From the IMG/VR virus record IMGVR_UViG_3300028394_000058: a stretch of 64,000 nt of DNA. One strand, written 5' to 3'. Origin of the DNA: an uncultured virus (IMG/VR IMGVR_UViG_3300028394_000058). Its lineage: Duplodnaviria; Heunggongvirae; Uroviricota; Caudoviricetes. Shown in pieces: positions 1 through 17,628 of the stretch (position 1 is its first letter; the number at the start of each line of letters is the position of its first letter). The notes below the pieces were generated by a model. The model ran no database searches, was not told the DNA's origin, and was given only the letters and a program-made list of their open reading frames with translations. The position numbers and the translations under genes were made by a program.

Positions 1-25
1 AAAGATTTTTACAAGGCAATCTAAA

Positions 26-367
26 ATGGAAAATTTAGCATATTACATTGAATTCTTGGGGCTGAAAAGCCCTGTTGAATTGACGTTTAAAACCAAATCC
101 AATAAAACAATGGATGCAGTTTATTATCCTAAATTTTCCAATAAGGGTAATTTAAAAGCGCATAAAATTGTAGTATTCCTGGGCAATCAGGATGTTAATT
201 CACGGCGCACGCTAGACGAATTGGTCGCACACGAATTGATTCATGCTTGGCAACAAGAAAATAACCTTGTTGAATTTCACGGGATTAATTTTGTTGTACA
301 AGCAATTGCAATGGACGAAAAATTTGATTTGCCCAATATTTACCTTGCTGAATTGGACGACGAATAA
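26..367 (+). CDS. SprT-like zinc metallopeptidase-domain protein
   Basis: HExxH motif (AHELIHAWQ) plus a downstream HG..F motif. Confidence 0.6.
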   Translation: MENLAYYIEFLGLKSPVELTFKTKSNKTMDAVYYPKFSNKGNLKAHKIVVFLGNQDVNSRRTLDELVAHELIHAWQQENNLVEFHGINFVVQAIAMDEKFDLPNIYLAELDDE

Positions 368-374
368 TTCGCAC

Positions 375-403
375 TTGATTAACCCATCCCAACCCTGTAT
401 AAT
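375..403 (+). promoter_or_regulatory. sigma70-type promoter
   Basis: TTGATT-17 bp-TATAAT upstream of the GGAG RBS and ATG at 428. Confidence 0.75.
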
Positions 404-427
404 ATTAACTTAACTGGAGAAAACGCA

Positions 428-754
428 ATGGCTGAAAAAACTGTAAACTATACCCCTGAGCAAACCCTGAATTTGATTGCCGATTACAAAAACGGTTTTA
501 CCGTTGAAGAATTGGCTTTGCAAATGGGCAAATCGGTTCGCTCAATTGTTGCTAAACTTTCGCGTGAAGGAGTTTATCAAAAGAAAACCTATAAAACAAA
601 AACCGGCGAGGTAGTTGTTAAAAAAGACGCGCACGCTGATGCAATTGGCGCAATTCTCCGATTGCCGGAAAATGACATTGAATCCCTGACCAAGGCTAAT
701 AAATCGGCATTGAAAGCCATTTTCGACGCATTGGCTAATTCAAAACCCATTTAA
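428..754 (+). CDS. T5 A2/D3-like HTH DNA-binding protein (paralog 1)
   Basis: NYTPEQ...GKSVRSIVAKLSREGVY...ESLTKANK resembles the T5 A2/D3 family; paralogous to 1546..1857 and 2714..3034. Confidence 0.65.
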   Translation: MAEKTVNYTPEQTLNLIADYKNGFTVEELALQMGKSVRSIVAKLSREGVYQKKTYKTKTGEVVVKKDAHADAIGAILRLPENDIESLTKANKSALKAIFDALANSKPI

Positions 755-764
755 TTGGGCGTTT

Positions 765-795
765 AATAAAACCGGCAATTGCCGGTTTTATTTTA
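765..795 (+). terminator. intrinsic terminator / perfect 28-bp palindrome
   Basis: AATAAAACCGGCAATTGCCGGTTTTATT followed by T residues. Confidence 0.75.
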
Positions 796-845
796 TGCAA
801 ATCGTTTTAAAAAATATAATCGTTATATTTTTTAAAACGGCGCCC

Positions 846-875
846 ATTATACTAGTATAATGGGGAACGTGTCAA
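846..875 (-). promoter_or_regulatory. consensus sigma70 promoter with no credible downstream ORF
   Basis: TTGACA-18 bp-TATAAT on the minus strand. Confidence 0.6.
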
Positions 876-984
876 GGGGTTGTGCAAAAATACAACATTA
901 GGGGAAACCCTAATAGTCAAACCAAAAACGCACCCATTTACACCCATTTTTTCGTTATAAATTCTGGAACTATATGGCGCCAAA

Positions 985-1014
985 ATTATACCATAATTTT
1001 GGGGCGCGTGTCAA
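985..1014 (-). promoter_or_regulatory. consensus sigma70 promoter with no credible downstream ORF
   Basis: TTGACA-18 bp-TATAAT on the minus strand. Confidence 0.6.
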
Positions 1015-1239
1015 GCGTTTTGCAAAAATACAACATAGGGACTTTCCCTAATAGGGTAAACCCGTAGGGCAAATTTTGCCGTTGTTTTTTCACCACAGGC
1101 AAATTTTGCCGTTGTTTTTTCACCACACCGGCAAAATTTTCCTTATAAATTCTGGCACTATGCTGCGGCGCAGCACGACCCCAGGCGCGCTGCGCCAGTG
1201 CAAAAACTAGTGCAAATTCTTGCAAGTGCTTACGCCTGG

Positions 1240-1269
1240 ATTATACAGTGGTTGAGCTACCCTTGTCAA
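1240..1269 (-). promoter_or_regulatory. consensus sigma70 promoter with no credible downstream ORF
   Basis: TTGACA-18 bp-TATAAT on the minus strand. Confidence 0.6.
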
Positions 1270-1308
1270 GTCAATATTTTTAGGCGTGGCACAAGCAAAA
1301 ATTCAGTG

Positions 1309-1337
1309 TTGATTCTGCCCGCTAAAGCCTGTATAAT
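1309..1337 (+). promoter_or_regulatory. sigma70-type promoter
   Basis: TTGATT-17 bp-TATAAT. Confidence 0.7.
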
Positions 1338-1367
1338 ATATTCTTAAGTTGATGAGGGAAACCAAAC

Positions 1368-1493
1368 ATGACAGACTTTCAAAATGATCAAGAAGAATGG
1401 TGGCTGGATTGGAAAGACGAACATTTCGATTATCCCCAGTATCCGCAAAGCACGCCAGACCCTAGTAATTTTGATCTTGATATTCCCTTCTGA
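1368..1493 (+). CDS. 41-aa acidic peptide ending NFDLDIPF (not in ORF track)
   Basis: MTDFQNDQEEWWLDWKDEHFDYPQYPQSTPDPSNFDLDIPF; own promoter and GAGGGA RBS. Confidence 0.7.
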   Translation: MTDFQNDQEEWWLDWKDEHFDYPQYPQSTPDPSNFDLDIPF

Positions 1494-1545
1494 CTAGCGT
1501 ATAATAGAATCTTCAACAGCGCAGAAACCAAAACACAAAGGACAT

Positions 1546-1857
1546 ATGATGACTGACAAAACTGTAAACTACACCCCAGAGCAAACCGCTACCATTATCG
1601 GACTTTACACCACGGGTAACTCTGTGGAGATGATTGCCGAGCAGGTTGGCAAAAGCGTGCGGTCGATTGTGGCAAAACTCTCCCGTGAGGGAGTGTACAT
1701 CCCCAAGACCGCGGCTAAGGGTCAGGGCCGGGTTACCAAGGCTGATCTGATCAACCGCATTGCAGTGAAGTTCGATATCGACCCCAATGCAATTGCTAGC
1801 CTGGAAAAGGTTACCATGAGCGGCCTCGAGACCTTGGTTAACAAGTTCGGGGCATAA
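1546..1857 (+). CDS. T5 A2/D3-like HTH DNA-binding protein (paralog 2)
   Basis: shares KTVNYTPEQT and GKSVRSIVAKLSREGVY with 428..754; promoter TTGATA-17-TATAAT at 1477-1505. Confidence 0.65.
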   Translation: MMTDKTVNYTPEQTATIIGLYTTGNSVEMIAEQVGKSVRSIVAKLSREGVYIPKTAAKGQGRVTKADLINRIAVKFDIDPNAIASLEKVTMSGLETLVNKFGA

Positions 1858-1882
1858 GCTCCCGGGGAGAAGAAATTCTGAC

Positions 1883-1911
1883 TTGATTCTTCTCCCCGGA
1901 TCCTGTATAAT
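1883..1911 (+). promoter_or_regulatory. sigma70-type promoter driving the non-coding unit
   Basis: TTGATT-17 bp-TATAAT; the -35 sits within the inverted repeat CCGGGGAGAAGAA/TTCTTCTCCCCGG (1862-1899). Confidence 0.7.
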
Positions 1912-1917
1912 ATTATT

Positions 1918-2540
1918 ATAGACAGTTAGGAAAGAGCTTATCTGAAAGGACAAAGCGCAGATACCGGCATCACGTACCACTACCCCGCCAGCAAGCCAAT
2001 GTATAGCTAGCAATTTGTAGTGCCAAGTACACGGCCGACGACTGTTTGTCTCAGTGGGTGACAGCGGCGCGTTATATATGCAAGCGTCTTAATTGTGGGG
2101 AATTTATGTTAAAGCCGAGCCACAGCCCTGAGCAGTTTACTCAACTTTTGATTTTAGTCAAAAGTCTATTTTAGTGGCTAGTCTATTTTTATGGCTAGTC
2201 TTTTTACGAAATCCTGGACCCTAAGGTTCGCAACCCAGATGGCTACCAGGTGGTTGTAAGCACCCAAACTTACCAAGTTGTCTAGAACTTGTAAATAACT
2301 TAGACGGTGTTCCTCCGGGACCTTACGAGAGGTGTGCAACTAGAGCAGTACTGTCTAGCGGTTAGGCCCGCTAGTAAAATATAGGCTCAGGGTTGATGAC
2401 GCAGTGTGCTAGCGTTTGCGCTAGTTGCTCTGCCAGACCCTACCGCGGTTTGGCAAAGTGTAAACTCGGCTTAACCTGCATTAAAAACTTCTCGAGAGTT
2501 CAAAAACCCGCAAGGCGACGGCTTTAGCGGGTTTTTGTTT
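1918..2540 (+). ncRNA. candidate large structured non-coding RNA (~620 nt), family unassigned
   Basis: promoter-to-terminator unit with no sense ORF of 60 aa or more; long-range complementarities 2112-2119/2465-2472, 2124-2133/2385-2394, 2084-2088/2398-2402, 2078-2082/2477-2481; many local hairpins. Confidence 0.65.
2501..2540 (+). terminator. intrinsic terminator
   Basis: CAAAAACCCGC...GCGGGTTTTTGTTT. Confidence 0.75.
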
Positions 2541-2581
2541 GTCCACAACTTTAACCTGAAAAAATATAGGCGCTTGCGCCC

Positions 2582-2610
2582 ATTATACAGTGTGAAATCA
2601 ATTTTGTCAA
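2582..2610 (-). promoter_or_regulatory. perfect consensus promoter convergent on the ncRNA
   Basis: TTGACA-17 bp-TATAAT-GGGCGC on the minus strand. Confidence 0.6.
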
Positions 2611-2654
2611 CTGGGAATTTTTATTTCTGACCCTAAGTCACGGCAAATCACACA

Positions 2655-2692
2655 AAATAAAAAAGCCCCAACCAAGTTTCCTTGATTGGGGC
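2655..2692 (-). terminator. intrinsic terminator of the leftward D2 operon
   Basis: GCCCCAATCAAG...CTTGGTTGGGGC followed by a U-tract on the minus strand. Confidence 0.75.
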
Positions 2693-2713
2693 GATTTAGG
2701 GTCAGATTTGACT

Positions 2714-3034
2714 TTATTGGGGATTTGGGCAGTTTTGGTGACTTAAACGGGTTTCTATGACCTGAAGAATACCTTTATTTACCTTTTCTAGACTTTCTAG
2801 GAGTTCGGGGTTCATATTTAAGAGCTTAGCGATGTTTTCTATGTGCTCTGACTTCTTGGTAGGCACTTCACCGCGCTTGTTCAGGTAGGCTTTTTTCTGG
2901 TAAACACCTAAACTTGACAGCTTAGCAATGATACTGCGCTCCGGCACCTCCAGATCTTGTGCAATTTTTTGGACTTGAACGCCGGTTTTGTATTGCTCTA
3001 CCAGACGGTCAGTAATTTCTTTAGTATATTTCAA
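2714..3034 (-). CDS. T5 A2/D3-like HTH DNA-binding protein (paralog 3)
   Basis: ERSIIAKLSSLGVYQKK...ESLEKVNK; TTG start with AGGAG RBS. Confidence 0.6.
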   Translation of the reverse strand: MKYTKEITDRLVEQYKTGVQVQKIAQDLEVPERSIIAKLSSLGVYQKKAYLNKRGEVPTKKSEHIENIAKLLNMNPELLESLEKVNKGILQVIETRLSHQNCPNPQ

Positions 3035-3046
3035 GTGCTTCTCCTA

Positions 3047-3835
3047 TTAATCCTCCCAAGGGAGTTTAAGCTCGTCTTGGGGCATTGTTACAATTTCCTG
3101 TTTTTTCGACCCTAAATCAAACACTTCGCCAACCACTAGTGGTTGTGGCATCACATCCCAATTTTTTGGATCTAGGATCATCAGCTCAGTTCTAAGGCTA
3201 GGATGTGCAACCCAAATTTGGCACAACACAGTGCTCAAGAGGGTAGGAGCACCCTGAAAAGGTGTAGCAGCCAGCCCATGCAGTTTCCACTGCGATTGAG
3301 GTTTGTTTTGTTGACCAGCTTTGGCTCCGGTTCTAGCAGTCAACCCAAAGTTTCTGATTTCAATCAACTCCTCTGACCCTAAACCTAAACAATCACCACT
3401 GTACTCCATAACCTCTAAAAGTTCTTTGTGTACTAGGCTATCCAAGCCGGTTAAATCCCAACGACTGTAGGGAATACCCTGATGTCGTTTCATGCCAGCT
3501 AAGATTATGGGGACCAGTTGACTATAATTTCTACCCCACTCCGAACTCTGCGTTTTGACTAAGGTCCCGCGCTTTAGCTGGGTAACTACCCGCCACAAGC
3601 CTATATCCCACTTTGTCTTAATATTCTGCTTTGCTGTCGCCCTAGGGTCTAGGCGTTGGTTGGGGAGTGGGACCGCCTGCCAAGTGCCGTAATACGCGGA
3701 GATTTGGGGCAGCATCCACAAGCCGTAGAGGTTAAGTTGATGCTCCTCAGCCTGTTTAAGCAAATCCTCCTTATTTAAATCATGGTAAGCCTCAAAAGGC
3801 ACAAGTTTAAGATCGTTTGATTTTAATTTTAGCAT
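3047..3835 (-). CDS. D2: T5 D2-like protein
   Basis: YSQLVPIILAGMK...Y.RWD and LCQIWV match the recalled T5 D2 motifs; start placed at MLKLKS. Confidence 0.7.
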   Translation of the reverse strand: MLKLKSNDLKLVPFEAYHDLNKEDLLKQAEEHQLNLYGLWMLPQISAYYGTWQAVPLPNQRLDPRATAKQNIKTKWDIGLWRVVTQLKRGTLVKTQSSEWGRNYSQLVPIILAGMKRHQGIPYSRWDLTGLDSLVHKELLEVMEYSGDCLGLGSEELIEIRNFGLTARTGAKAGQQNKPQSQWKLHGLAATPFQGAPTLLSTVLCQIWVAHPSLRTELMILDPKNWDVMPQPLVVGEVFDLGSKKQEIVTMPQDELKLPWED

Positions 3836-4091
3836 ATACGTATAGATACAATTTGCCTTAGTTGTAGGAAATTTTTTTAATTGCATAAACTTCGAAAACT
3901 TCTACATTGCAAAAGCTAAATTTTATTAACGCTCTCCCCGTGGGGCTCAGGCGAGAGCTATAAAATTTGCTTTTTTATGTTTTCTTGTTTACTTATAAAA
4001 AATTTCTTTGTTTACATCTCACTAGATTTAACAATATTATAGCATATTTATTTGCTGAAGTAAAGGCTGATTTTTAGTCGTGCCTCTGATT

Positions 4092-4367
4092 TTAATGTGA
4101 GTCTTTGTGGCTGTAATAAAATTCTTTGAATGTTCTGGTGTCTAACTTGCCAAAGTCTAGTTCGTAAATCCACACTAACAGGTGTTCTACAATTTGGTCG
4201 CCTAGTATTTCGCTGATGAGTTCGTCATATGCTCGGTATACTGGGCCGTAAATTGAAAGCTGATTGTCCTGGTCTAGGAGGTATACAGCTTGTTGAAGCT
4301 GTTGCTCCATGTTTTGATGTTGACGAATAGTTTCAACGTACTGCTGTGCTACTTTGAATTTATTCAT
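4092..4367 (-). CDS. hypothetical protein
   Basis: ORF in a coupled leftward operon; WIYELDFGK motif. Confidence 0.6.
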   Translation of the reverse strand: MNKFKVAQQYVETIRQHQNMEQQLQQAVYLLDQDNQLSIYGPVYRAYDELISEILGDQIVEHLLVWIYELDFGKLDTRTFKEFYYSHKDSH

Positions 4368-4518
4368 AGTGATGCTTGATTGTCCAGTGTTTGTAGGTTT
4401 CAGGTTCTGTGAGTAGCTCGCGGCTCCATGTGAGTAGCTGCCATTTTAGGTCAGGTTTGTCATGTGGCAGGTTGACTGCTGCTTCGCGCAGCAACTCTGC
4501 CTGTTCAAACTTAGTCAT
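4360..4518 (-). CDS. 52-aa hypothetical protein (not in ORF track)
   Basis: MTKFEQAELLREAAV...KHHYE; start and stop overlap both neighbours. Confidence 0.55.
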   Translation of the reverse strand: MTKFEQAELLREAAVNLPHDKPDLKWQLLTWSRELLTEPETYKHWTIKHHYE

Positions 4519-5003
4519 TCTCGCCTCATAATAGTAATTAAGTGAATTTGGTTTTGATGCCAGTTTTGTGATTCAATCTTAAACTTTCCTTTGAAGCCAT
4601 AACCTTTAGCCCATGTATGGTTATTATCAAAGTAAAGTGGAAAAGTTTCTTCAGTGATAATGTTAACGTGTTCAGGGTCACGAAAAGCTGCCGAGGCTGG
4701 AAACGCAGGTGTAAAGCTGTAAAAGATACCGCCGGGCTTTAGCACACGATAAACTTCATTCATCAACTCCACAAAACTATTACGGCGCTGTGGACAGTAG
4801 ATTACCCTAGGAATATGCTCAATAAAATCATAGGCAGTAACTATATCAAATTCTTCGTTTTCAAACGGAATAGGTTCTATGGCTAGATCAGCAATTTTAA
4901 TTCGTGGACTTTGATAGTCTACAACGTCTATGCCCCAGATTTCCTTGCAATCAAAAATACATTTAGGGTTAGGTCCACAACCCAAGTCTAGTGCTTTATT
5001 CAT
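4515..5003 (-). CDS. class I SAM-dependent methyltransferase
   Basis: LDLGCG motif I; FDIVTAYDFIEHI; RVLKPGG. Confidence 0.85.
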   Translation of the reverse strand: MNKALDLGCGPNPKCIFDCKEIWGIDVVDYQSPRIKIADLAIEPIPFENEEFDIVTAYDFIEHIPRVIYCPQRRNSFVELMNEVYRVLKPGGIFYSFTPAFPASAAFRDPEHVNIITEETFPLYFDNNHTWAKGYGFKGKFKIESQNWHQNQIHLITIMRRE

Positions 5004-5182
5004 TGTTTAAAATGCTCCTTGATAGCTTCAGCTGCTCCAAAACAACTGGTTTGAGTTTTGTTACCACGAAGGCAAATTTGAATGCACAGTTTAACAATGC
5101 TTTGACTATACTTTAGCATATTTTCGTTGTTAATGCCTTGCTGAAAACCTGCTTGTACTTGCAGTTGCTCAAATACTGTCAT
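5000..5182 (-). CDS. hypothetical protein
   Basis: start moved to MTVFEQ; coupled to neighbours. Confidence 0.5.
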   Translation of the reverse strand: MTVFEQLQVQAGFQQGINNENMLKYSQSIVKLCIQICLRGNKTQTSCFGAAEAIKEHFKQ

Positions 5183-5390
5183 GATGGCCTCCGTAGTCCT
5201 CATCAGTACCCCAACCAGCAGTTTTAAAGCTGTAGCCGTCATCGTCGTCGCAATCTGCTTCTTCATGCATATCCACAACTTGTTGCAAGATATTGTTGAT
5301 TAGCTGATTTAGGGTAATGTCCTGCTCATGTGCCATGCGCATTAGCTGAAACATTTCTTCTTCGTTTAGGTCTAGTTCAATAGTTTCCAT
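5169..5390 (-). CDS. hypothetical protein
   Basis: METIELDL...MAHEQDITLNQL; TAATG-type coupling. Confidence 0.6.
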   Translation of the reverse strand: METIELDLNEEEMFQLMRMAHEQDITLNQLINNILQQVVDMHEEADCDDDDGYSFKTAGWGTDEDYGGHHDSI

Positions 5391-5584
5391 TAATGGTAGT
5401 CTCCGTTGCAGTGGCTTACTAGGTAATTGTATACTGGTGTGTGGTCTAGGATCCATTGACCCTCAGGCGTTAAACCTTGAAAAGTTTTATTGGGACTATG
5501 CCACCAGCACTTGCCAAACTCAGGGCCTAGCAGTGCTAGCAGCATTTCATCACAGCGTAGTTTAAGTGTGTCCTTAGTTACCAT
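5390..5584 (-). CDS. Xre/MbcA/ParS antitoxin C-terminal-domain-like protein
   Basis: WWHSPNKTFQGLTP resembles the W..PN....G.TP motif of this domain. Confidence 0.45.
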   Translation of the reverse strand: MVTKDTLKLRCDEMLLALLGPEFGKCWWHSPNKTFQGLTPEGQWILDHTPVYNYLVSHCNGDYH

Positions 5585-5996
5585 TAATATTTTCCTCTGT
5601 AAGAACTGGTGTATTTACATAAACTGCATAACCCGCGGCCAGGGTAAGGGGCAGAGCGATCTGGGGAGCAATACCCGCTAGAATGCCTAGATTATTAACG
5701 GCAGCAGCAGTCCATATAGTAGCTGCTGCTCTTTTTGGATTTTTCTGATTCTCTGGTGCCATTCGATCAATAGCATTAAGAATCAACACTTTAAGTAGCG
5801 TAACACCTACAAAACCTGCAGGATTGAGTTCATATCCTGCTCCTGTTCCAATTACCGCAGCAGTGGTAACGGTGTCAAGCACAGCAGCCTGTTTTGCATT
5901 AGGCACAGTACTACAACCAGTGCTAGCTAGTGACAAAATAATCAGTGTAGTAATAATAAAACGTATACTAATTAATAACTTGCAATCGTTATTCAT
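5574..5996 (-). CDS. putative membrane lipoprotein
   Basis: hydrophobic signal ending LASTGC; further hydrophobic segments. Confidence 0.55.
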   Translation of the reverse strand: MNNDCKLLISIRFIITTLIILSLASTGCSTVPNAKQAAVLDTVTTAAVIGTGAGYELNPAGFVGVTLLKVLILNAIDRMAPENQKNPKRAAATIWTAAAVNNLGILAGIAPQIALPLTLAAGYAVYVNTPVLTEENINGN

Positions 5997-6355
5997 TTAG
6001 TATCCCAAGTAATCTTAGGGTTGTCACGTTCGTATAGTTCTACTAGCTGATCTAGTGTCCACACATCGTCAGTTTCAAAGGTATCTAGCCAACGACCAAA
6101 CCTGCACCAGTCTAGGCTAAGCATGGGCGGCACACCAATCTCTTCACCGTAGGGGTCACCAGTGCCGCGCACATCAATTCTACCACAACTATAGTTGTCA
6201 GTAACTAGTTCAATTGTATAACGCTCACCAGCTTTGCGTCCAGTATAAGGACTGTCCTGTTCTTGTACATGATGTTCTAGTGTGGTCAAACCACGCTTAC
6301 GATACCAGTCTAGGCTTATAGGTCCCATCCAGTTAGTACTATATCTGATCTTCAT
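5993..6355 (-). CDS. hypothetical protein
   Basis: start MKIRYS overlaps the upstream stop (ATGA). Confidence 0.6.
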   Translation of the reverse strand: MKIRYSTNWMGPISLDWYRKRGLTTLEHHVQEQDSPYTGRKAGERYTIELVTDNYSCGRIDVRGTGDPYGEEIGVPPMLSLDWCRFGRWLDTFETDDVWTLDQLVELYERDNPKITWDTK

Positions 6356-6687
6356 GCTACCATCCACTTAATGTCCTCTTTAAGCACAACCACTTCAATG
6401 CCGTCGTACTCACGAATAATAAACTCCTGACCCTCAGGCAGCCAAGTCAGTTTCAGTCCATCAAACCCGCGATAGGTTACATCCGGGTCTGTTTCCTTAA
6501 GATAAAAGTAGGCGTCGTCCTCAGCCTGCAACCGCTCTTGACTGTTGGGCTCAGTATCCTGCCAACGCAGGTACAGTCTGATAAGCTCAGCATCAAACAT
6601 AGTTTCTGGATACCAAGTAGCCCAGGGGGTGCCCCAGTCATCGCTGTGGATTACGGCTACTTGACCGTTAAATACATACTTTTGCAT
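6352..6687 (-). CDS. hypothetical phage protein
   Basis: W.TW...F.IREYDGIE motif; coupled ORF. Confidence 0.6.
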   Translation of the reverse strand: MQKYVFNGQVAVIHSDDWGTPWATWYPETMFDAELIRLYLRWQDTEPNSQERLQAEDDAYFYLKETDPDVTYRGFDGLKLTWLPEGQEFIIREYDGIEVVVLKEDIKWMVA

Positions 6688-6956
6688 TAATTTAAGTTCC
6701 GTTTAGGCAGTTCATCTGGGTCTAGCATACCCAGTAATTTAAGCTGTGTAGTTTCCGACAAACTCTCAAATTCTTCATCAGTTAGTTCACGCGATTCTTG
6801 GGCAAACTTGCCGCTACGAAATGCTTCGTTAATGTGTTTGATCAACTCGTCCAGTTCTTCTTGTGTGCCCTCAAAATCATCAAAGCATCCTGGCGCAAAC
6901 TCCAGCGTCATTTCCTGCATTTCTTCCTGAGTAATGTCATCAAACTTTCGCATCAT
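6687..6956 (-). CDS. acidic hypothetical protein
   Basis: LEFAPGCFDDFEGTQEELDELI; AGGAG RBS. Confidence 0.6.
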   Translation of the reverse strand: MMRKFDDITQEEMQEMTLEFAPGCFDDFEGTQEELDELIKHINEAFRSGKFAQESRELTDEEFESLSETTQLKLLGMLDPDELPKRNLN

Positions 6957-7233
6957 CAGACTCCTGCTTTTTATTTAACAACCATGTCATATGCTCAATT
7001 TCATCCCAGTAGAGCTGCAGTGCGGTAACACGGTCTACTTGATACAACTCCATAACAAATTCTAGTGCTTGTTTGTTCATCAGTCCGACTCTCCAGTAGG
7101 TACACCAGTGCACACAAGAATATCTGCAAGCATGTACAGTGCTTCAACAATCTCGGCATCAGTTAAAAAATCTTTAAGGGGACTACCACACTGTTCCTGC
7201 CATACAGCATGGACAACTTTTTCTGCTAAATGT

Positions 7234-7410
7234 TTATTCACCGCGCAACTCCTTATCCTGTTTGCCTACTTCGTATGCAGCTTTAAGCCACGGCAACATC
7301 TTATCGTACAATTCCTCGTTGCCGTCTAAGTCGTCTAGGAATCGCTCGGCACGAAAACCAAAGCCTTCCAGCTCATAAAACCAGGCGTAAAATGCTTCTA
7401 GTTTATTCAT
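7234..7410 (-). CDS. hypothetical protein
   Basis: start moved to MNKLEAF; WFYELEGFGFRAERF. Confidence 0.55.
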   Translation of the reverse strand: MNKLEAFYAWFYELEGFGFRAERFLDDLDGNEELYDKMLPWLKAAYEVGKQDKELRGE

Positions 7411-7609
7411 CACATAACTCCTTGGTCTGCTTACGCAGCTTTCTGATTTCTTCAGCAGCTTCCTTGCACAAGCCCCGCAATGTAACATTAGCTTGGTGTA
7501 GTGTATCAAAATTTTCTGGAAAAGCCACGTCAGGCTGTTCTAAGATTTGTGCTATATCTAAATACGGCGAGTCTGGGATATACGAGTGTTTGGGATTATT
7601 CAGTAACAT
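7403..7609 (-). CDS. hypothetical protein
   Basis: start moved to MLLNNP (GGAGG RBS); EAAEEIRKLR. Confidence 0.55.
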   Translation of the reverse strand: MLLNNPKHSYIPDSPYLDIAQILEQPDVAFPENFDTLHQANVTLRGLCKEAAEEIRKLRKQTKELCDE

Positions 7610-7793
7610 TATCGTCCTCCACAACTTCCCACATACGCATATAAAAATGTTTGCCATAACTTTCACGCACTTCGTCAGGATAACCCGCCCAGTACAACCA
7701 GTTGTCTACATCGGGATCTTTAGTGCTATCCCAGATCTGCGGAAATCCATACCGCCAACCGCCCGGCGGGTCAACCCATAGTTTTTTAGTCAT
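7596..7793 (-). CDS. hypothetical phage protein
   Basis: WVDPPGGWRYGFP motif. Confidence 0.6.
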   Translation of the reverse strand: MTKKLWVDPPGGWRYGFPQIWDSTKDPDVDNWLYWAGYPDEVRESYGKHFYMRMWEVVEDDNVTE

Positions 7794-7948
7794 ACAGTTT
7801 TACCACCCTTAAGTTTACATTCGCCAACAGCTTTAGAGGCACAACGACTAAACTTTATACACCAGTCGTTGTATGTTTTAGCCAAGTTAGAGCCTGGGGG
7901 ATGCCCTGCATTATGATGATGTTTACAGTCCTTGCAATGTTTGTTCAT
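7790..7948 (-). CDS. small Cys/His-rich protein
   Basis: start moved to MNKHCKDCKHH, downstream of the promoter at 7977-8005. Confidence 0.55.
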   Translation of the reverse strand: MNKHCKDCKHHHNAGHPPGSNLAKTYNDWCIKFSRCASKAVGECKLKGGKTV

Positions 7949-7967
7949 TGTTGTGCCCTTTCTCAAT

Positions 7968-8038
7968 TTATATAATATTATAGCACAAACACAAAGGGCA
8001 TTCAACTGCAAAATATTGCCGCTAAATGCCCCTGTGGT
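7968..8038 (-). repeat. promoter/stem-loop cassette, copy 1
   Basis: TTGAAT-17-TATAAT; near-identical to 8335-8404. Confidence 0.8.
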
Positions 8039-8039
8039 A

Positions 8040-8228
8040 TTACATAAACTTATCTTCTGGTGGTTCAAACTCAAACCATTCGTGCAACTCGTGCATTACA
8101 TTGTGCACTACTTGCTCAACAATCTGTTCTCTAGTAGGTTCGTCTGTGTATTTAAAACTGCGATAAACGCCGGTTTGTACACCGTCTTCAATGCAACGCT
8201 CTAATAGTTTTAATATGTTAGCTTTCAT
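8040..8228 (-). CDS. hypothetical protein
   Basis: GGAG RBS; lies between the two repeat cassettes. Confidence 0.6.
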   Translation of the reverse strand: MKANILKLLERCIEDGVQTGVYRSFKYTDEPTREQIVEQVVHNVMHELHEWFEFEPPEDKFM

Positions 8229-8240
8229 GCACCACTCCAG

Positions 8241-8315
8241 TTATTTTCTAGCAGGACAAGTTCTGCCTTGATTGCAGTTTTGATTGCAAGGCGGGCAGTG
8301 TTTGGTGTATTGCAT
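8241..8315 (-). CDS. 24-aa Cys-rich micro-protein (not in ORF track)
   Basis: MQYTKHCPPCNQNCNQGRTCPARK; first ORF after the promoter at 8344-8372. Confidence 0.5.
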   Translation of the reverse strand: MQYTKHCPPCNQNCNQGRTCPARK

Positions 8316-8334
8316 AGTGTTGTTCTTTATCAAA

Positions 8335-8404
8335 TTATATAATATTATAGCACAAACACAAAGGGCATTCAACTCTAAAATATTGTTGCTGAATGCCCTG
8401 TGGT
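8335..8404 (-). repeat. promoter/stem-loop cassette, copy 2
   Basis: 40 bp identical to copy 1; GGGCATTCA/TGAATGCCC inverted repeat overlapping the -35. Confidence 0.8.
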
Positions 8405-8413
8405 GATTTAAAC

Positions 8414-8683
8414 TTATTGCAAACTATAGTGTTTTAAGATGGCTATGTCTACTTTCTCCTCGTCTAAGAGGGCTAAACGGGCTTGTAGCGCACACTGACG
8501 CACAATGTTTTCGCCAAATAACATTAGCATCAATTCAATTTTTTGTGCTTCTGAAAATTTTGCCAGTTGCGGGTTGTTAAGTTGCATATGTGCACTGTAG
8601 GCTGCTTCCTGCATAGGCTTTGACATTGCAGGAATTTGTGGTGCTTGTTGTGGTAGTACTTGTTTTAGTATTTGGTCAATCAT
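8414..8683 (-). CDS. hypothetical protein
   Basis: start moved to MIDQILK (ATGA overlap). Confidence 0.55.
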   Translation of the reverse strand: MIDQILKQVLPQQAPQIPAMSKPMQEAAYSAHMQLNNPQLAKFSEAQKIELMLMLFGENIVRQCALQARLALLDEEKVDIAILKHYSLQ

Positions 8684-9270
8684 GATTGTAGGTCTGTGTT
8701 GGTAGGAACTTCCATTTTCCACTGATAGGTAACATAAACATTTCGTAAAGTTTTATTATCTAGTGGCGTTAGTGGAATTTGTGGTAAATAGCTGGCATAT
8801 TTGCTAGATACCCACAGCAGGCCCTGACTTTTAACCGGATCATACGGAGTACTTGGTGAGTCCGCGGCAATGTCGTGCGGGCTGTTTAAAATGTATATTG
8901 GCCTAGGTCCGTCGTGTTGTAAACAAATTTGCAATGATAAATCAACAAACTTTACAAGTGTTTTTTTGGGCAACTGCTGACTGTAGTGGTTTACTCGTCT
9001 GACCACACAACCATAATATTCAAGATTGTCCGGCTGTGTGCTATCAATTTTAGTTAAATACTTTGTTTTAAGTAACTTAGTTAATTCTGTAGCATATTCT
9101 GGTGCAGGCTCCATATTTCTAAATATAAAATCATTGCTTATAACTATATTTTTTGGAAATTCGCCGTCTTCGGTTTCAGTAAAATAAAGTTTGTGTGCAG
9201 TAATCAAAGTATTAATTTGCACGTCTGTAAGTGCATTATCAATAATTTGTGTTTGTAATAGGTTATACAT
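8680..9270 (-). CDS. hypothetical protein
   Basis: 196-aa ORF in the leftward operon. Confidence 0.6.
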   Translation of the reverse strand: MYNLLQTQIIDNALTDVQINTLITAHKLYFTETEDGEFPKNIVISNDFIFRNMEPAPEYATELTKLLKTKYLTKIDSTQPDNLEYYGCVVRRVNHYSQQLPKKTLVKFVDLSLQICLQHDGPRPIYILNSPHDIAADSPSTPYDPVKSQGLLWVSSKYASYLPQIPLTPLDNKTLRNVYVTYQWKMEVPTNTDLQS

Positions 9271-9276
9271 GTGTGG

Positions 9277-9483
9277 CTAGTGGACTAGCCCTCCTTTGTT
9301 ATTAATACCCACTAGGTCTTGTAAGTTAAATACAGGAAAATAGTTTCCTTTATGCATCGGTACAATGGTTCTGGTAACTTGTCTGCTAGACTCTTCACCA
9401 CAAGGCATACACAGTTTTTTAGTATGGGTTAATGCCCAACGGCGTGGATCAACAGGTTCATCGCAACGCTTACAGTTATGCAT
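9277..9483 (-). CDS. C4 zinc-finger protein (DksA/TraR-finger-like)
   Basis: CKRC...RRWAL...CMPC. Confidence 0.5.
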   Translation of the reverse strand: MHNCKRCDEPVDPRRWALTHTKKLCMPCGEESSRQVTRTIVPMHKGNYFPVFNLQDLVGINNKGGLVH

Positions 9484-9655
9484 ATTTAGTTCTCACGCTT
9501 TGTTTAATTTGTTTAATCTGTTCACTAGTAAGTGGGCCATCATCTTGGGGATAGTCCGGCGGCACTTCTTTTTGAGTTTGCATCATGTGCCAAATCTTAT
9601 TACGACTAGCACGTTGAGCTGTTGTTTGTATCATATGTTGTAATAGTTTACGCAT
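9476..9655 (-). CDS. 59-aa hypothetical protein (not in ORF track)
   Basis: MRKLLQHM...KYA; fills the gap with coupled start and stop. Confidence 0.5.
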   Translation of the reverse strand: MRKLLQHMIQTTAQRASRNKIWHMMQTQKEVPPDYPQDDGPLTSEQIKQIKQSVRTKYA

Positions 9656-9996
9656 TAATCTTCCCAGTCTTTACGCATTGCTGCTTTTAGTCGTTTACTT
9701 AGTCCACGAATATATTCAAGATGTAAATTTATAGTAGCACGTTGACCAGGTAACCAATCTGGTTTAAGCATAAGCGCTACCTCTTCATCTAGTGCTATAA
9801 CTATAGGTTTAATTGTATTATCTAGCCAACGAACATTTTTTAGCAATAATGTACAAGTAGTCATAGACTCACTACCTTCTCTTGGCGGCATTGCTAGTTT
9901 AGCCCCGCCTTTTCGTTCCATATCGTCCAGTAGCCATAATGGTAAATCTATGACTGTGATTGGTTCAAAATGTTTTGTATAAATTACTACATTCAT
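9655..9996 (-). CDS. hypothetical protein
   Basis: 113-aa ORF. Confidence 0.6.
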   Translation of the reverse strand: MNVVIYTKHFEPITVIDLPLWLLDDMERKGGAKLAMPPREGSESMTTCTLLLKNVRWLDNTIKPIVIALDEEVALMLKPDWLPGQRATINLHLEYIRGLSKRLKAAMRKDWED

Positions 9997-10029
9997 ATAT
10001 TATATCACAGACTAGCTCTGTGTTCAAGT

Positions 10030-10710
10030 TTAAATACTAAAATCTTCTTCCTCAACCACCTTAGGAAAGAAGGCCCCAATAGTAACGGGTGCAGCAAAAC
10101 GCAGTTTATCTAGCACTAATTGAGCAAGCTCTCTGTGCTCTCTTTGTGTGGTTGGATCTAAACGCTGTTGCAAGTAGAAGATCCAACTACGCAATGTACC
10201 ATTCATATACATCCTGCTAGGTGTCAGACCCTCAGGCAGAATAGCTCGGGCCTGTTCTTTAGCTATACCTTGCTCTAGTGCCCAAGTATATGCTTCAGTA
10301 GTTTTCTTAATTAGTGCGTCTTGCAGCACTTCCCACTGATATGCAAGTTGACGTTGTTTGTCTACAGTTATATCCGGTTCAATAGAATTTTGACGATTCT
10401 TTGTGTCTTGCAGCCTACATTCACGACGTTGCAACTCACCTAAAGTATTTACATCTGCATAACGCTGTGAAAATTCTTGAAAACTAAAACTACGGTGTCG
10501 TAAGATTTGACGGGCAATATCACGTGTAGTTGTAATTTCCAGGCATACATTAGCCATTTCAAACGGCGATACATGACCGTGTTTAACCATGTACTGTAGT
10601 AGCCCAATGATATTTTGATTGTTTTGATTTTTAGGGTTAGAGACTCGGGCAATGTAAGCAATTTGCTCATCAATGTCTTGTGTCATCCACATAATTTTAA
10701 CTTCTTGCAT
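10030..10710 (-). CDS. thyX: FAD-dependent thymidylate synthase
   Basis: ThyX motif RHRSFSFQEFSQRY; HGHVSPFE. Confidence 0.95.
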   Translation of the reverse strand: MQEVKIMWMTQDIDEQIAYIARVSNPKNQNNQNIIGLLQYMVKHGHVSPFEMANVCLEITTTRDIARQILRHRSFSFQEFSQRYADVNTLGELQRRECRLQDTKNRQNSIEPDITVDKQRQLAYQWEVLQDALIKKTTEAYTWALEQGIAKEQARAILPEGLTPSRMYMNGTLRSWIFYLQQRLDPTTQREHRELAQLVLDKLRFAAPVTIGAFFPKVVEEEDFSI

Positions 10711-10721
10711 TTGTGTCCAGG

Positions 10722-11156
10722 TTAAGTGTAAAATACATGATTACCAATTTTATCAGTTTGTTTTAACCGCCATAGTGGTTTAACTTTTAAGTTGTGATAG
10801 TGTGTAGCATTAGTTTTATAATAGTCAGGGTTTAATATTACTAATTTAGCAATATGTAGGCTATTTAACCAAGCGCTTTTGTCTAAGATAGGTTTGTACT
10901 TATCTTTGGTCCAGCTAAATTGACCGCGCTGATAAACTACGCCACAAATAGTCTTTTTAAAATTGCCGCTAGCAACACGATTCAGGGTAACTTTAGCTAC
11001 TGCTATTTTACCCTGCAGGGTTTCTCCTCTGGCCTCGTGATAGATATTTTTAGCCAAACATACGGTTTCATTGTCATATACCCAACTTCTTGGTATATCC
11101 GCAGAGTTAATAGCGTGAGGAATTGCTAACAGGCATAATACTAGGAATTTTATCAT
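10722..11156 (-). CDS. SleB-like cell wall hydrolase (Hydrolase_2)
   Basis: CLAKNIYHEARGE, TICGVVYQ..QFSW, IGNHVFY; N-terminal signal peptide. Confidence 0.9.
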   Translation of the reverse strand: MIKFLVLCLLAIPHAINSADIPRSWVYDNETVCLAKNIYHEARGETLQGKIAVAKVTLNRVASGNFKKTICGVVYQRGQFSWTKDKYKPILDKSAWLNSLHIAKLVILNPDYYKTNATHYHNLKVKPLWRLKQTDKIGNHVFYT

Positions 11157-11194
11157 TGTTTTATCCTAAAATTTTGCCAAATCTTACATAATTA

Positions 11195-11298
11195 ATTATA
11201 GCACACTGGTCCGACAAAATCAAGTTAATTTTGTTAGTGGGTCCTGCGCCAACGGCAAAAATTTTTGCGTTGCCAATTGTTGCCTGGCATGATATAAT
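11195..11298. promoter_or_regulatory. divergent sigma70 promoter pair
   Basis: minus strand TTGATT-17-TATAAT (11195-11223); plus strand TTGCCA-17-TATAAT (11270-11298). Confidence 0.7.
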
Positions 11299-11319
11299 AG
11301 TAAAAACTGGAGGACTGCT

Positions 11320-11529
11320 GTGTTACCAACTCAAAAACAAAATAATCAAGAACGATACATTCAAAAACTTGAATACTTAATTAATAATCAACTGCTTCCC
11401 GTATACATGGAATATCGTAAACAACATGGACTAAATCCAGTTTGCGATATTCCTAAAGAACTTTTAGCAGATGTAAAAAAACAAAACTCACTGCCCGCCT
11501 TACTCAAACCAATTGAAAAATTAACTTGA
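11320..11529 (+). CDS. hypothetical protein
   Basis: GTG start with GGAGG RBS. Confidence 0.55.
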   Translation: MLPTQKQNNQERYIQKLEYLINNQLLPVYMEYRKQHGLNPVCDIPKELLADVKKQNSLPALLKPIEKLT

Positions 11530-11584
11530 ATTTTTACTAAAACTATCGTATAATATTAAATCAACAACACTTTTACTTATAACT

Positions 11585-12019
11585 ATGCAACCAAAAACTT
11601 TTGACCAAGCCGCGTTTGACAGTATGTTGGGTAACCAAATTCCTAGTCTTACTCAAATTACTCTTGAAGAATTAAATAAACTAGCCGCCACATCGGTTAA
11701 ATTTTGTGATGGAGCTGTAAAACATGATGGTGACAAGCCTCCAATGAATTTACTAAGTCGTGAAGCCCTAGAGCAAACGGCTATGGTTATGGCTTTTGGC
11801 AAGGAGAAGTACGCAGCACATAATTGGCGCGGCGGCTTTGCTTGGTCACGCCCCCTAAGCGCAGCAATGCGGCACATTATGGCATTTAACGACGGTGAGG
11901 ACAAAGATCCTGAGTCGGGTCTTAGTCATCTTGCTCACGCCGCTTGCTGTATTATGTTCCTTTTGGAATTTGAGAAAACCCATAAACATCTAGATGATCG
12001 TTTCAAACCAACTAAATAA
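11585..12019 (+). CDS. dATP/dGTP diphosphohydrolase-domain protein (DUF5664-like)
   Basis: KHDGDKP, FGKEKY..HNWR.G, DPESGLSHLAHAAC. Confidence 0.85.
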   Translation: MQPKTFDQAAFDSMLGNQIPSLTQITLEELNKLAATSVKFCDGAVKHDGDKPPMNLLSREALEQTAMVMAFGKEKYAAHNWRGGFAWSRPLSAAMRHIMAFNDGEDKDPESGLSHLAHAACCIMFLLEFEKTHKHLDDRFKPTK

Positions 12020-13614: not shown

Positions 13615-14617
13615 TCAAAACGTCAAACGCATTGGTTTTGCTTGCAAAATCCAAGAATCTCAAAGCAAAGCCAATCCTAGCCTAAATACTAAAACTACTA
13701 CTCTTACTTGGCTTAACAAGCAGACTAAACACGTTGCAGTAGAACGACTACACGATATTGCTAAACACAATATTCAAATTTTGCAACGTCAAATGACTTG
13801 GCTTGCTGCTAGCCCGCCACATTTGCGTATGTTTCGTATGAGCAGCGACCTGCTGCCAGCATATACTCACGAAGACTGGACTTGGGCATATTTTGACCAA
13901 GACATGGTTAATCTACTTAGTACCGGCTTTGCCAAAGTAGGCGAGCTGGCTCGCAAACACGATATTAAGATTAGTTTTCATCCAGGTCAGTTTTGTGTGC
14001 TAGCTAGTGAAAATCCTAACGTAGTGGAAAATTCAATTCAAGAGTTCGAGTATCACTGCGACATAATCCGCTACATGGGATATGGCCAACAATTTCAAGA
14101 CTTTAAATGCAATGTTCACATTGGCGGCAAGCTAGGTCCAGCAGGTATTAAAGCTGTGCTGCCTAAACTCAGCCGCGAAGCGCGTAATACCTTAACTATC
14201 GAAAATGCCGAATATACTTGGGGTCTTGACGCTAGTCTTGAACTTGCTAAAGATTGTGCACTAGTGCTTGACATACATCATCACTGGATTAATACTGGCA
14301 AGTACATTGAGCCTACCGACCCTAAAGTAATGCAAGTTATTGATAGCTGGCGCGGTGTTAGACCTACGCTACACTACAGTGTTAGCCGCGAGGATGTACT
14401 AGTTGATCACGATCCTACCACTATGCCTTGCTTAACTCAACTAAAACAACAGGGGTTTACCAGTGCCAAGCTTAGAGCTCATAGCGACTATTATTGGAAT
14501 CAAGCTGTTAGTGCTTGGGCCGCTAGTTTTCTGCCAGATTTTGACATTATGTGCGAGTCTAAAGAAAAAAATCTAGCTAGCCACGAGTTTGCAAAATCTG
14601 CTCTTGATTTTGCCTAG
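13607..14617 (+). CDS. uvsE: UV damage endonuclease (UVDE)
   Basis: RIGFAC, MFRMSSD, SFHPGQF.VLAS, IEN, LDIHHH, AHSD, DIMCESK.K. Confidence 0.9.
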   Translation: MFNQNVKRIGFACKIQESQSKANPSLNTKTTTLTWLNKQTKHVAVERLHDIAKHNIQILQRQMTWLAASPPHLRMFRMSSDLLPAYTHEDWTWAYFDQDMVNLLSTGFAKVGELARKHDIKISFHPGQFCVLASENPNVVENSIQEFEYHCDIIRYMGYGQQFQDFKCNVHIGGKLGPAGIKAVLPKLSREARNTLTIENAEYTWGLDASLELAKDCALVLDIHHHWINTGKYIEPTDPKVMQVIDSWRGVRPTLHYSVSREDVLVDHDPTTMPCLTQLKQQGFTSAKLRAHSDYYWNQAVSAWAASFLPDFDIMCESKEKNLASHEFAKSALDFA

Positions 14618-14762: not shown

Positions 14763-14846
14763 GGGCGAGTGGTGTAATGGTAGCCACGCTGGTTTTAGAA
14801 GCCAGTGCCGCAAGGCGTAAGAGTTCGAGTCTCTTCTTGCCCACCA
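14763..14846 (+). tRNA. tRNA-Leu(TAG)
   Basis: cloverleaf with long variable arm; loop TTTAGAA; encoded CCA. Confidence 0.9.
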
Positions 14847-14859
14847 TCAAGGAGCTAAT

Positions 14860-15183
14860 ATGAGCCGTACTAACAAAGACAAAAACTGGAAACTTAAATT
14901 TCCAGAATTAGACTGGGAATTTGATTCAATAAAAATTACCAGTGAAAATAGCTATAGTGTTCGTTATATTAAATTGCCGGGTGTAAAAACTAAAAAGAAA
15001 CGGGAATTGGATACTGATTGGCACTGGCTTAATACAACGCCTAGTTGGTGGACTCGTCTAATGATGAATCGTCCACAACGTCGTGCTGGTCGTGTATGGG
15101 AACATAAAGTACTTAAAGAGCTAGACTTGGAAGATTGCGATCCTCCTAGTGTAGGACATAAACCTCACATATATTATTATTAA
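14860..15183 (+). CDS. hypothetical protein
   Basis: AAGGAG RBS; TPSWWTRLMMNRPQR. Confidence 0.6.
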   Translation: MSRTNKDKNWKLKFPELDWEFDSIKITSENSYSVRYIKLPGVKTKKKRELDTDWHWLNTTPSWWTRLMMNRPQRRAGRVWEHKVLKELDLEDCDPPSVGHKPHIYYY

Positions 15184-15185
15184 AT

Positions 15186-15761
15186 ATGCAACATTTTTAC
15201 GAACAAATTCCTGGTTGGTCATTTGATATTGTTGGACAGTACAGGGCGGCAGTTGAAGGCGCTGTAAATGGCGCACACTTTGTTGAAGTTGGCAGCTGGA
15301 AAGGCCGTAGTGCAGCTTTTATGGCAGTGGAAATTATCAACAGTGGTAAGCAGATTACTTTTGACTGCGTGGATCATTTTCAAGGCAATCCAGAACAGCG
15401 TGACACTAATAGTGAAGCCTATGATAAAGACGCAGCTGACGGCAACATACAATCAATATTTACACAAAATATGTTGCCTGTAGTAGGATATTACAACGCA
15501 GTAGTACAAACAAGCCCGGCCGTAGCACAGCAATATGCTGATAATAGCCTAGATTTTGTGTTTATTGACGCAGGCCGGGACTATGACAGTGCAAAAGCAG
15601 ATATTTTAGGTTGGTGGCCAAAAGTTAAACCAGGCGGATTGCTTGCTGGACATGACATTAGGCATCCGCCAATTGATAAAGCTCTTAAAGATGCGGAAGC
15701 TGAAACCGGAAGGTATGTTAGTAACTATTGGGATTGTTGGCAAATTACTAAACCAGTTTAA
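15186..15761 (+). CDS. class I SAM-dependent methyltransferase (Methyltransf_24-like)
   Basis: FVEVGSWKGRS, DFVFIDA, KPGGLLAGHD. Confidence 0.85.
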   Translation: MQHFYEQIPGWSFDIVGQYRAAVEGAVNGAHFVEVGSWKGRSAAFMAVEIINSGKQITFDCVDHFQGNPEQRDTNSEAYDKDAADGNIQSIFTQNMLPVVGYYNAVVQTSPAVAQQYADNSLDFVFIDAGRDYDSAKADILGWWPKVKPGGLLAGHDIRHPPIDKALKDAEAETGRYVSNYWDCWQITKPV

Positions 15762-15766
15762 TATAA

Positions 15767-15858
15767 AGAGAGTTGGCTGAGTGGCTGAAGGCAGCGGTTT
15801 GCTAAACCGTCGTATGCAGTAATGTGTACCGTGGGTTCGAATCCCACACTCTCTGCCA
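15767..15858 (+). tRNA. tRNA-Ser(GCT)
   Basis: loop TTGCTAA; long variable arm; G discriminator; CCA. Confidence 0.9.
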
Positions 15859-15865
15859 AAAAATC

Positions 15866-16537: not shown

Positions 16538-16545
16538 TAAATACT

Positions 16546-16860: not shown

Positions 16861-16870
16861 AGGAGCAATT

Positions 16871-17056
16871 ATGATTCGATATGAACAAGTACAGGGATAT
16901 GCCGAAGACATTCCCGAAATGCCGCCCAATCCTAAAACAGGGCGAGATGAGGACGATATGCCACAAGGTGGCGCAGAAACAATGCCCATTAACATTGTTG
17001 ATCGGGGTGGAGTTACACACGAAGGCGATATGGGTCGCTTAGGCAAAAGCGAATAA
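16871..17056 (+). CDS. hypothetical protein
   Basis: AAGGAG RBS. Confidence 0.5.
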   Translation: MIRYEQVQGYAEDIPEMPPNPKTGRDEDDMPQGGAETMPINIVDRGGVTHEGDMGRLGKSE

Positions 17057-17097
17057 GCCTTAAATTATTTGCAACACACAACACACAAGGATATAAT

Positions 17098-17476: not shown

Positions 17477-17486
17477 GGATAATATA

Positions 17487-17621: not shown

Positions 17622-17628
17622 TAAGAAA

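Follow-up and report, generated by a model that had tools for sequence, protein, structure and literature searches.

A putative structured RNA gene with a conserved pseudoknotted core in an uncultured freshwater T5-like phage

GOLLD and ROOL RNAs are large, structured, free of open reading frames (ORFs) and phage-borne, and they often lie beside tRNAs or are co-transcribed with them (PMC5737381). Unusual architectures have been found for both (10.1101/2024.12.08.627333). Hammerhead ribozymes in the intergenic regions of phages are likewise already in print (PMC3088659), and phage T5 has a conserved 1662-bp untranslated region with repeats and palindromes, thought to act at the DNA level as an injection stop signal with DnaA boxes (10.1101/866236). 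Here we describe a locus in an uncultured virus, IMG/VR record IMGVR_UViG_3300028394_000058, for which a stretch of 64,000 nt was analyzed as a whole (the window). The element in question, the unit, is a stretch of about 620 nt at positions 1918-2540 on the plus strand. A sequence-only reading of this DNA had described it as a highly structured, ORF-free transcription unit in which the order of the helices resembles that of RNase P RNA, and had named a ROOL- or GOLLD-class RNA and a new RNA class as alternatives. We conclude that the unit is very probably a real structured RNA gene, belonging to a modular family that is compared below with each of these known systems.

The unit contains a core of 73 nt, at 2056-2128 (+), that folds as a three-way junction with a pseudoknot. 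Helix P1 pairs 2056-2059 with 2125-2128; P2 pairs 2060-2062 with 2086-2088 and encloses a variable hairpin; and P3 pairs 2094-2098 with 2120-2124. The pseudoknot connects CGG at 2065-2067, in the internal loop of P2, with CCG at 2115-2117, in the loop of P3. The junction sequence CUUAAUUG and a GAG are invariant, and the unpaired bases are nearly so. In a MAFFT alignment of 56 sequences, 98.3% of cells were paired and 5 of the 15 pairs showed compensatory changes, a result that none of 500 shuffles reached. A second test used 98 matches (83 distinct), aligned to a model from which the pseudoknot had been left out; six of the 98 are low-scoring (25-27 bits), most of them at the position of the second copy of the fold described below. 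Among the 83 distinct sequences, in an alignment fitted to the model for P1-P3, 99.8% of cells were paired and 11 of 15 pairs were compensatory, in 62 cells (0/500 shuffles). All three pseudoknot pairs covary in this set. When the partners were slid against each other, pairing fell to 38-52%. A P1 pair is U-G in 71 of the 83 sequences and C-G in the other 12, which fits the plus strand only, because the other strand would read A-C. The core varies in length between 61 and 94 nt; the steps between lengths are not divisible by three, which argues against coding. All 15 pairs form in the window, where a covariance model built from the 56 sequences, the window's own among them, gives a single match (2053-2131, 66 bits). 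The window thus has what defines the family, namely P1, P2, P3, the CGG/CCG pseudoknot, the invariant CUUAAUUG and a site downstream of a helix-turn-helix (HTH) gene. The 73-nt pseudoknotted three-way junction is real.

The core is preceded by a 5' domain, unit 1 (1918-2052, +), which is closed by a helix between 1921-1927 and 2040-2046. Across 38 sequences, one pair of this helix is GC in 20, AU in 12 and GU in 6, and another is CG in 32, UG in 5 and UA in 1; the other four of the six predicted pairs are invariant. This closing helix is also real. A U-run follows it in 41 of 56 sequences, and in most relatives unit 1 forms a small RNA by itself, about 135 nt long, with such a run at its end.

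Signals for the start and end of transcription bracket the unit. A sigma-70-type promoter on the plus strand, TTGATT-17-TATAAT at 1883-1911, has 10 of 12 matches and aligns with promoter 1 of the relatives; the transcript would start near 1918. An inverted repeat (+) with its arms at 1862-1874 and 1887-1899 ends the HTH gene upstream, and its loop and 3' arm contain the -35 hexamer. Relatives carry a hairpin at the position of 1862-1899 with other arm sequences, GGGTCA.../...TGACCC, as seen by eye and uncounted. On the 3' side, a pre-terminator box at 2483-2506 is followed in the RNA fold by an intrinsic terminator (+), with the stem CCCGC/GCGGG at 2507-2511/2527-2531 and a U-run at 2532-2536. 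A simple terminator scan did not list this hairpin and U-run (2507-2540) because the loop is longer than 8 nt. The last 60 nt, i.e., box and terminator, are common to distant relatives, with different stem sequences (four loci, by eye). An A-run precedes the stem, which is thus flanked by runs on both sides, and the terminator could therefore stop transcription of the opposite strand too. Between the two flanking HTH genes (1858-2713), the longest plus-strand ORFs encode 42, 44 and 31 amino acids (aa). The sequence-only reading was therefore right about the promoter, the terminator and the absence of any sense ORF of 60 aa or more, and also about a separate 5' domain, which it had closed by 1922-1926/2041-2045. 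The G+C content is 47% in the unit and 38% in the window. The predicted folding energy of the plus strand is -200.2 kcal/mol, which is z = -4.0 relative to 20 shuffles; for the antisense strand the shuffle comparison gives z = -1.7.

The unit, searched in distant mode, and positions 1-12000 of the window, searched in near mode, returned nothing from 50,697 phage records. The HTH protein encoded upstream has relatives in hundreds of IMG/VR stretches, and an iterated nhmmer search downstream of the HTH gene recovered the 5' part of the unit in 51 of 72 distinct related segments; in seven others the match is confined to about 40 positions at the promoter. Close relatives of the whole unit are four IMG/VR contigs with 77-91% identity. 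Searches for the exact core pattern located it in 73 stretches of IMG/VR and in at least 119 stretches from metagenomes; of 68 loci identified through the core alone, 56 have an HTH paralogue upstream. Among 185,579 bacterial and archaeal species genomes the pattern has 24 matches; 23 of them score no higher than 23 bits against the core model and were taken as chance, and only a 2.9-kb contig (L173) is regarded as real. Whole-record searches gave one core copy in each of three relatives' contigs, and the core was not found in the records of phage T5 and Vibrio phage Thalassa. Two of the loci, L124 and L143, are the ends of a single IMG/VR contig of 100,412 bp; they share the same core sequence and differ in their downstream modules, which points to two tandem units or to a repeat at which the assembly broke.

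In most relatives, two transcription units, each with its own promoter, occupy the gap between the flanking genes: unit 1 and a further RNA that can reach about 1.2 kb. Of 56 sequences, 49 have a second consensus promoter that separates unit 1 from the core; the seven sequences that lack it include all five members of the window's clade. In this clade a deletion of about 44 nt removed the U-run and the second promoter, and units 1 and 2 are therefore fused in one RNA of about 620 nt. The unit in the window is the shortest, fused form of a modular locus.

The longer relatives carry additional modules. A second, more variable copy of the core fold stands just after the core in 29 distinct sequences; its P2 pairs in 29 of 29 (three types), its P3 pairs in 29 of 29 (many sequences), and the pseudoknot complement is present in 24 of 29. 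Of 20 loci, seven encode a tRNA that is downstream of the core and shares its strand: L145:1118-1189 (-), L115:1037-1108 (-), L102:1332-1404 (+) and four more. This tRNA stands either directly after the core or directly before a hammerhead; in two cases, visual inspection of the anticodon loop suggested UUC (Glu) and showed an encoded CCA end. The hammerhead is of type I and was found in 45 distinct relatives, with invariant CUGAUGA, GAAA and A-U/C17, and with GUC (or GUA) as the cleavage site. In these 45 sequences 89.4% of cells pair and 11 of 17 pairs are compensatory (0/500 shuffles); stems I, II and III all covary. Stem III is about 50-100 nt long, which is probably why all hammerhead models in Rfam miss these ribozymes. 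Examples in the ORF-free gap are L037:4872-4992, L084:1444-1564 and L012:4659-4763; the hammerhead also occurs in loci without the core, such as the L012 group. The window, by comparison, has no tRNA in 1700-2800, a single core copy and no hammerhead, and its clade likewise lacks these modules. No CTGATGA is present in the unit of the window or of the four other clade members; the nearest string, TTGATGAC at 2391-2398, has no GAAA partner and varies within the clade.

An octamer that touches these hammerheads is frequent in the window: GACCCTAA (TTAGGGTC on the other strand) has 13 sites against 1.2 expected, for example at 2217-2224, 2629-2636, 2696-2703, 14318-14325 and 49559-49566. Beyond 13 kb it appears sense-oriented to the flanking genes (by eye, uncounted). 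The complement of the octamer, in the relatives, makes up the 3' strand of stem III of the hammerhead as far as the cleavage site, as well as the arms of promoter-flanking hairpins.

To place the unit among catalogued RNAs, the window was compared with Rfam 15. At the gathering score the whole window contains a transfer-messenger RNA (tmRNA) and nine tRNAs elsewhere, and the unit has no match. In 1700-2800, at expectation (E) values up to 10, cmscan returns seven weak matches, and none of them is a GOLLD, ROOL, HEARO, OLE, ribozyme, riboswitch or tRNA model. The relatives gave no GOLLD, ROOL, HEARO or OLE match either, in 20 loci at E up to 0.1 and in four full-length relatives at E up to 10. 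Thus ROOL- or GOLLD-class membership finds no support, and the fallback offered by the sequence-only reading, a new RNA class, is supported insofar as this is a structured, ORF-free transcription unit. To our knowledge, the core fits none of the hepatitis delta virus-like, twister, twister-sister, hatchet or pistol ribozymes or the flavivirus exonuclease-resistant RNAs, a comparison that serves as a lead only. In a literature search that did not extend to subscription journals, we found no paper on this RNA family and none that joins a hammerhead with the Demerecviridae.

Parts of the unit were present in 20 listed public sequencing runs, 19 from freshwater or lake water and one labeled simply 'metagenome'; six of the 20 are RNA. 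Contigs assembled from lake metatranscriptomes hold the unit in all three runs examined (X2, X4 and X12). X4 has one contig of 604 nt over 1937-2513, at depth 31; X2 covers 1936-2086 at depth 2.6 and 2221-2473 at depth 28.8, with no differences; and X12 covers 1791-2448 in three pieces. Contigs from the RNA runs bridge the join between unit 1 and the core, and on the first 9 kb the deepest of them fall in the unit (31 in X4, 28.8 in X2). RNA-run contigs occupy 4-6 of 30 bins of positions 1-9000 and those of a DNA run, X1, all 30; the uncovered parts are no evidence. The tenfold difference in depth in X2 might hint at processing, which contig depths cannot show. The RNA-library contigs support, and do not prove, transcription of the unit.

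The 3' half of the unit is known from five sequences, those of the window's clade, and its results rest on these. An inserted domain follows the core at 2129-2394 (+), and its ends (2129-2141 and 2373-2394) can pair, as the fourth and fifth long-range helices of the sequence-only reading had it. In 15 sequences from relatives a spacer of 10-17 nt comes after the core, and in 11 others an insert of 90-256 nt takes that place. These 11 inserts are closed by duplexes of about 15-20 pairs between their ends, at -14.8 to -28.2 kcal/mol; the ends in the window reach only -9.8 kcal/mol. Within the clade, 74% and 64% of cells pair in the fourth and fifth helices, with no compensatory change. Among the proposed long-range helices, this nested pairing, 2124-2141/2373-2394, is the most plausible. 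Inside the domain lies a clade-variable insert (2134-2208, +), in which a 17-nt unit is repeated 2.6 times (2163-2206). It is present in two of the five clade members, and DNA contigs from run X1 pass straight from 2128 or 2133 to 2209. The domain is followed by a variable 3' region (2395-2482, +) that has a hairpin at 2408-2425 and lacks a 21-nt segment of the four relatives. Positions 2209-2482 can be aligned within the clade only. There, a hairpin at 2355-2374 shows one switch from U-A to C-G, and it is one of a few hairpins with such single compensatory switches.

We consider a non-coding RNA gene of this modular family, working as outlined in what follows, to be the best overall explanation, and hold it with moderate confidence. 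Host RNA polymerase would transcribe the unit from the strong sigma-70-type promoter and stop at the intrinsic terminator. The modules would fold independently, in the manner of beads on a string, with the invariant core as the working part; it may offer a specific surface that binds a protein, another RNA or a small molecule, or it may be catalytic. The stable RNA might then serve as a scaffold or decoy early in infection, as is supposed for GOLLD and ROOL, a mechanism we put forward by analogy and only tentatively. In the relatives, tRNA-processing enzymes and the built-in hammerhead would cut the long transcript; the form in the window would need no such cutting.

Several observations weigh against this explanation. 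The 3' 400 nt can be aligned in five close relatives only, with few compensatory changes and with rearrangements specific to the window, and a highly structured RNA is therefore demonstrated for the 5' third and not over the 620 nt that had been claimed. Even in unit 1, MAFFT and RNAalifold resolve the closing helix alone (six pairs) and none of the internal helices. The contigs from RNA runs give no strand, ends or level, and RNA libraries may contain DNA. Lastly, the window is without the relatives' tRNA, second fold copy and hammerhead, and the presence of these modules in relatives therefore says little about the role of the short form.

An alternative that shares the structured core is that 2056-2128 is a small catalytic or ligand-sensing RNA, i.e., a self-cleaving ribozyme or an aptamer, and that the rest of the unit is a passenger. 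Nearly invariant unpaired bases in a compact pseudoknotted fold, as seen here, are typical of ribozymes and riboswitch aptamers. New self-cleaving classes have been discovered adjacent to known ones, and the relatives carry a tandem second copy of the fold together with a hammerhead in the same transcript. The newer classes are named in PMC5737381. Nevertheless, no ribozyme or riboswitch of Rfam matches, and no ORF that the core could control lies downstream. The core is at the 5' end of the transcript in relatives, where cleavage would shed a short leader only, and several similar-looking conserved motifs with terminators did not self-cleave (PMC5737381). We therefore view this alternative as unlikely. 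The same doubtful standing applies to the broader proposal that the core is a new functional fold, be it a ribozyme or a ligand- or protein-sensing aptamer, that freshwater T5-like phages use either singly, as in the window, or as a tandem pair connected to a hammerhead and a tRNA within an RNA of up to about 1.2 kb. If that were true, the family would constitute a new class of phage RNA that is ornate, processes itself and has its own activity.

The unit could instead be a local regulator, in which convergent transcription, interference or antisense pairing tunes the flanking paralogous HTH genes. A perfect consensus promoter, TTGACA-17-TATAAT at 2610-2582 (-), faces the 3' end of the unit and is followed by a GGCGC hairpin at 2583-2566; a promoter is visible at this position in relatives as well. 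The runs on both sides of the terminator stem and the frequent HTH paralogue upstream of the core would also suit such a role. Interference, however, requires no invariant pseudoknotted fold, and the synteny may reflect shared descent alone. This possibility appears to us quite unlikely.

It is improbable that the locus is instead a DNA-level cis element, a counterpart of the T5 injection stop or an iteron origin, that is transcribed incidentally. The T5-like gene set of the window, the repeat-rich non-coding region of T5 (10.1101/866236), the 17-nt repeats and the several inverted repeats in the window could be cited in its favor. The covarying G-U pairs, however, fit one strand only, a promoter and a terminator bracket the unit, and the corresponding gap in relatives contains a tRNA and a hammerhead. 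Neither T5 nor Thalassa has the core in its record, and the 17-nt repeats belong to an insert that is missing from three of the five clade members. DnaA-box-like sites are not enriched in the window (88 against 107.6 expected). The exact DnaA-box consensus does not occur in 1883-2560, where three sites have one mismatch, and the ordered pairs of DnaA boxes within inverted repeats that are described for T5 (10.1101/866236) were not found in the unit.

That the unit encodes small proteins is highly improbable. Small ORFs do exist, e.g., 2046-2174 (42 aa) and 2393-2527 (44 aa), and an ATG at 2106 follows a purine-rich run. Against this, the small plus-strand and antisense ORFs had no match in Pfam or PHROGs, relatives have insertions and deletions inside the ORFs whose lengths are not divisible by three, and the conserved positions are base-paired columns and fall on all codon positions alike.

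The weakest alternative, a divergent RNase P-like RNA, is scarcely tenable: the analogy fails because the pairings underlying it are not conserved. It drew on the order of some complementarities in the window and on a likeness between AAACTCGGCTTA and CR V, a conserved segment of RNase P RNA. Five of the six complementarities quoted in the sequence-only reading are exact, and the 10-mer requires one G-U; as a class, they are at chance level. That is, counting perfect complements at least 100 nt apart against 200 dinucleotide shuffles, we found 150 complementary 5-mers against 160.5 in the shuffles, 37 6-mers against 42, and four 8-mers against 2.8, with 69 of 200 shuffles matching the last count. 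In the window and its four close relatives, 77.5% of cells of the proposed long-range helices pair, with one compensatory pair, and 385 of 500 shuffles equal this; covariation among homologs is thus not above chance. Three of the five helices, those with 2078-2082, 2084-2088 and 2112-2119, occupy bases of the covariation-supported core. The P4-like helix, AAGCCGAG/CTCGGCTT at 2112-2119/2465-2472, is found in the window only: 55% of its cells pair in the five sequences, its 5' arm contains the pseudoknot strand of the covarying core, and its 3' arm is replaced in all four close relatives, which have a 21-nt insert next to it. The string AAACTCGGCTTA, present at 2462-2473, is also replaced in all four. 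The sequence-only reading had itself conceded that the CR-I-type motif of the P4 5' strand, quoted as GAGGAAAGUCC, is absent; the best site in 1883-2540 has three mismatches (1927-1937), and sites of this type are at chance frequency in the window (84 against 88.4 expected). No RNase P model of Rfam matches the whole window at the gathering score or 1700-2800 at E up to 10.

The phage is an uncultured freshwater T5-like phage, and the unit lies in its early-gene region. The T5-like gene set of the window comprises a split NAD-dependent ligase, an SbcCD-like nuclease, PolA, a DnaB-like helicase, a primase, ribonucleotide reductase and D5-like HTH proteins, and the polymerase shares 49.7% identity with its counterpart in Vibrio phage Thalassa (Demerecviridae). 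Three HTH paralogues of about 105 aa (PHROG 1725/D5-like), at 428-754 (+), 1546-1857 (+) and 2714-3034 (-), flank the RNA locus. The protein encoded at 3047-3886 was considered as a counterpart of T5 dmp and rejected, since the two are not alike. Four perfect TTGACA/TATAAT promoters point leftward with no notable ORF behind them (2610-2566, 1269-1240, 1014-985 and 875-846, all on the minus strand); the opening is GGCGC for three of them and GGCGT for the fourth, and some also open with a hairpin. With the terminator-like hairpins that come after them (1050-1036, 915-896 and 760-745), these promoters may define small leftward transcription units. A perfect 30-nt tandem duplication lies at 1068-1127, each copy containing a small GGCAAATTTTGCC hairpin and then a T-run. 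The tmRNA of the phage (21559-22022) matches the betaproteobacterial and permuted tmRNA models, and the nine tRNA genes adjoin it (14763-23867).

Structured large RNAs without a known job are rare, and this family, uncatalogued in Rfam 15, is a further one. It is plentiful in metagenomes from lakes and also occurs in RNA libraries made from lake samples. The strongly covarying 73-nt core is of a size that is easy to synthesize, probe and solve, and the naturally occurring forms that have or lack the extra modules already provide a deletion series. Our results also suggest that the long 'untranslated' early regions of T5-like phages merit a look as RNA genes.

In comparison with known systems, the family resembles GOLLD and ROOL in being large, structured, ORF-free and phage-borne, and in the tRNA found inside the gap of 7 of 20 relatives. 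It differs from them in that neither the window nor the four full-length relatives match their sequence or structure at E up to 10; in that it is modular, with lengths from 0.6 to about 1.3 kb and a hammerhead in many members; and in that only the 73-nt core and the 5' domain are conserved. With bacterial RNase P RNA it shares the size class and, in one sequence, a superficially similar order of complementary segments, whereas every defining feature that we tested differs. The T5 untranslated region is likewise a long, ORF-free, repeat-bearing stretch that is kept among T5-like relatives (10.1101/866236). Here, by contrast, conservation is of the kind expected for an RNA: the covariation is strand-specific, a promoter and a terminator bracket the unit, and relatives contribute a tRNA and a ribozyme. 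There is also no cluster of DnaA boxes, and T5 lacks the core. Finally, the hammerheads of 45 relatives resemble the type I hammerheads of other phages in their CUGAUGA and GAAA motifs, their cleavage site and their covarying stems; they differ in having a long stem III and in being missed by all hammerhead models of Rfam, and the window and its four close relatives, which carry the same core, are without them.

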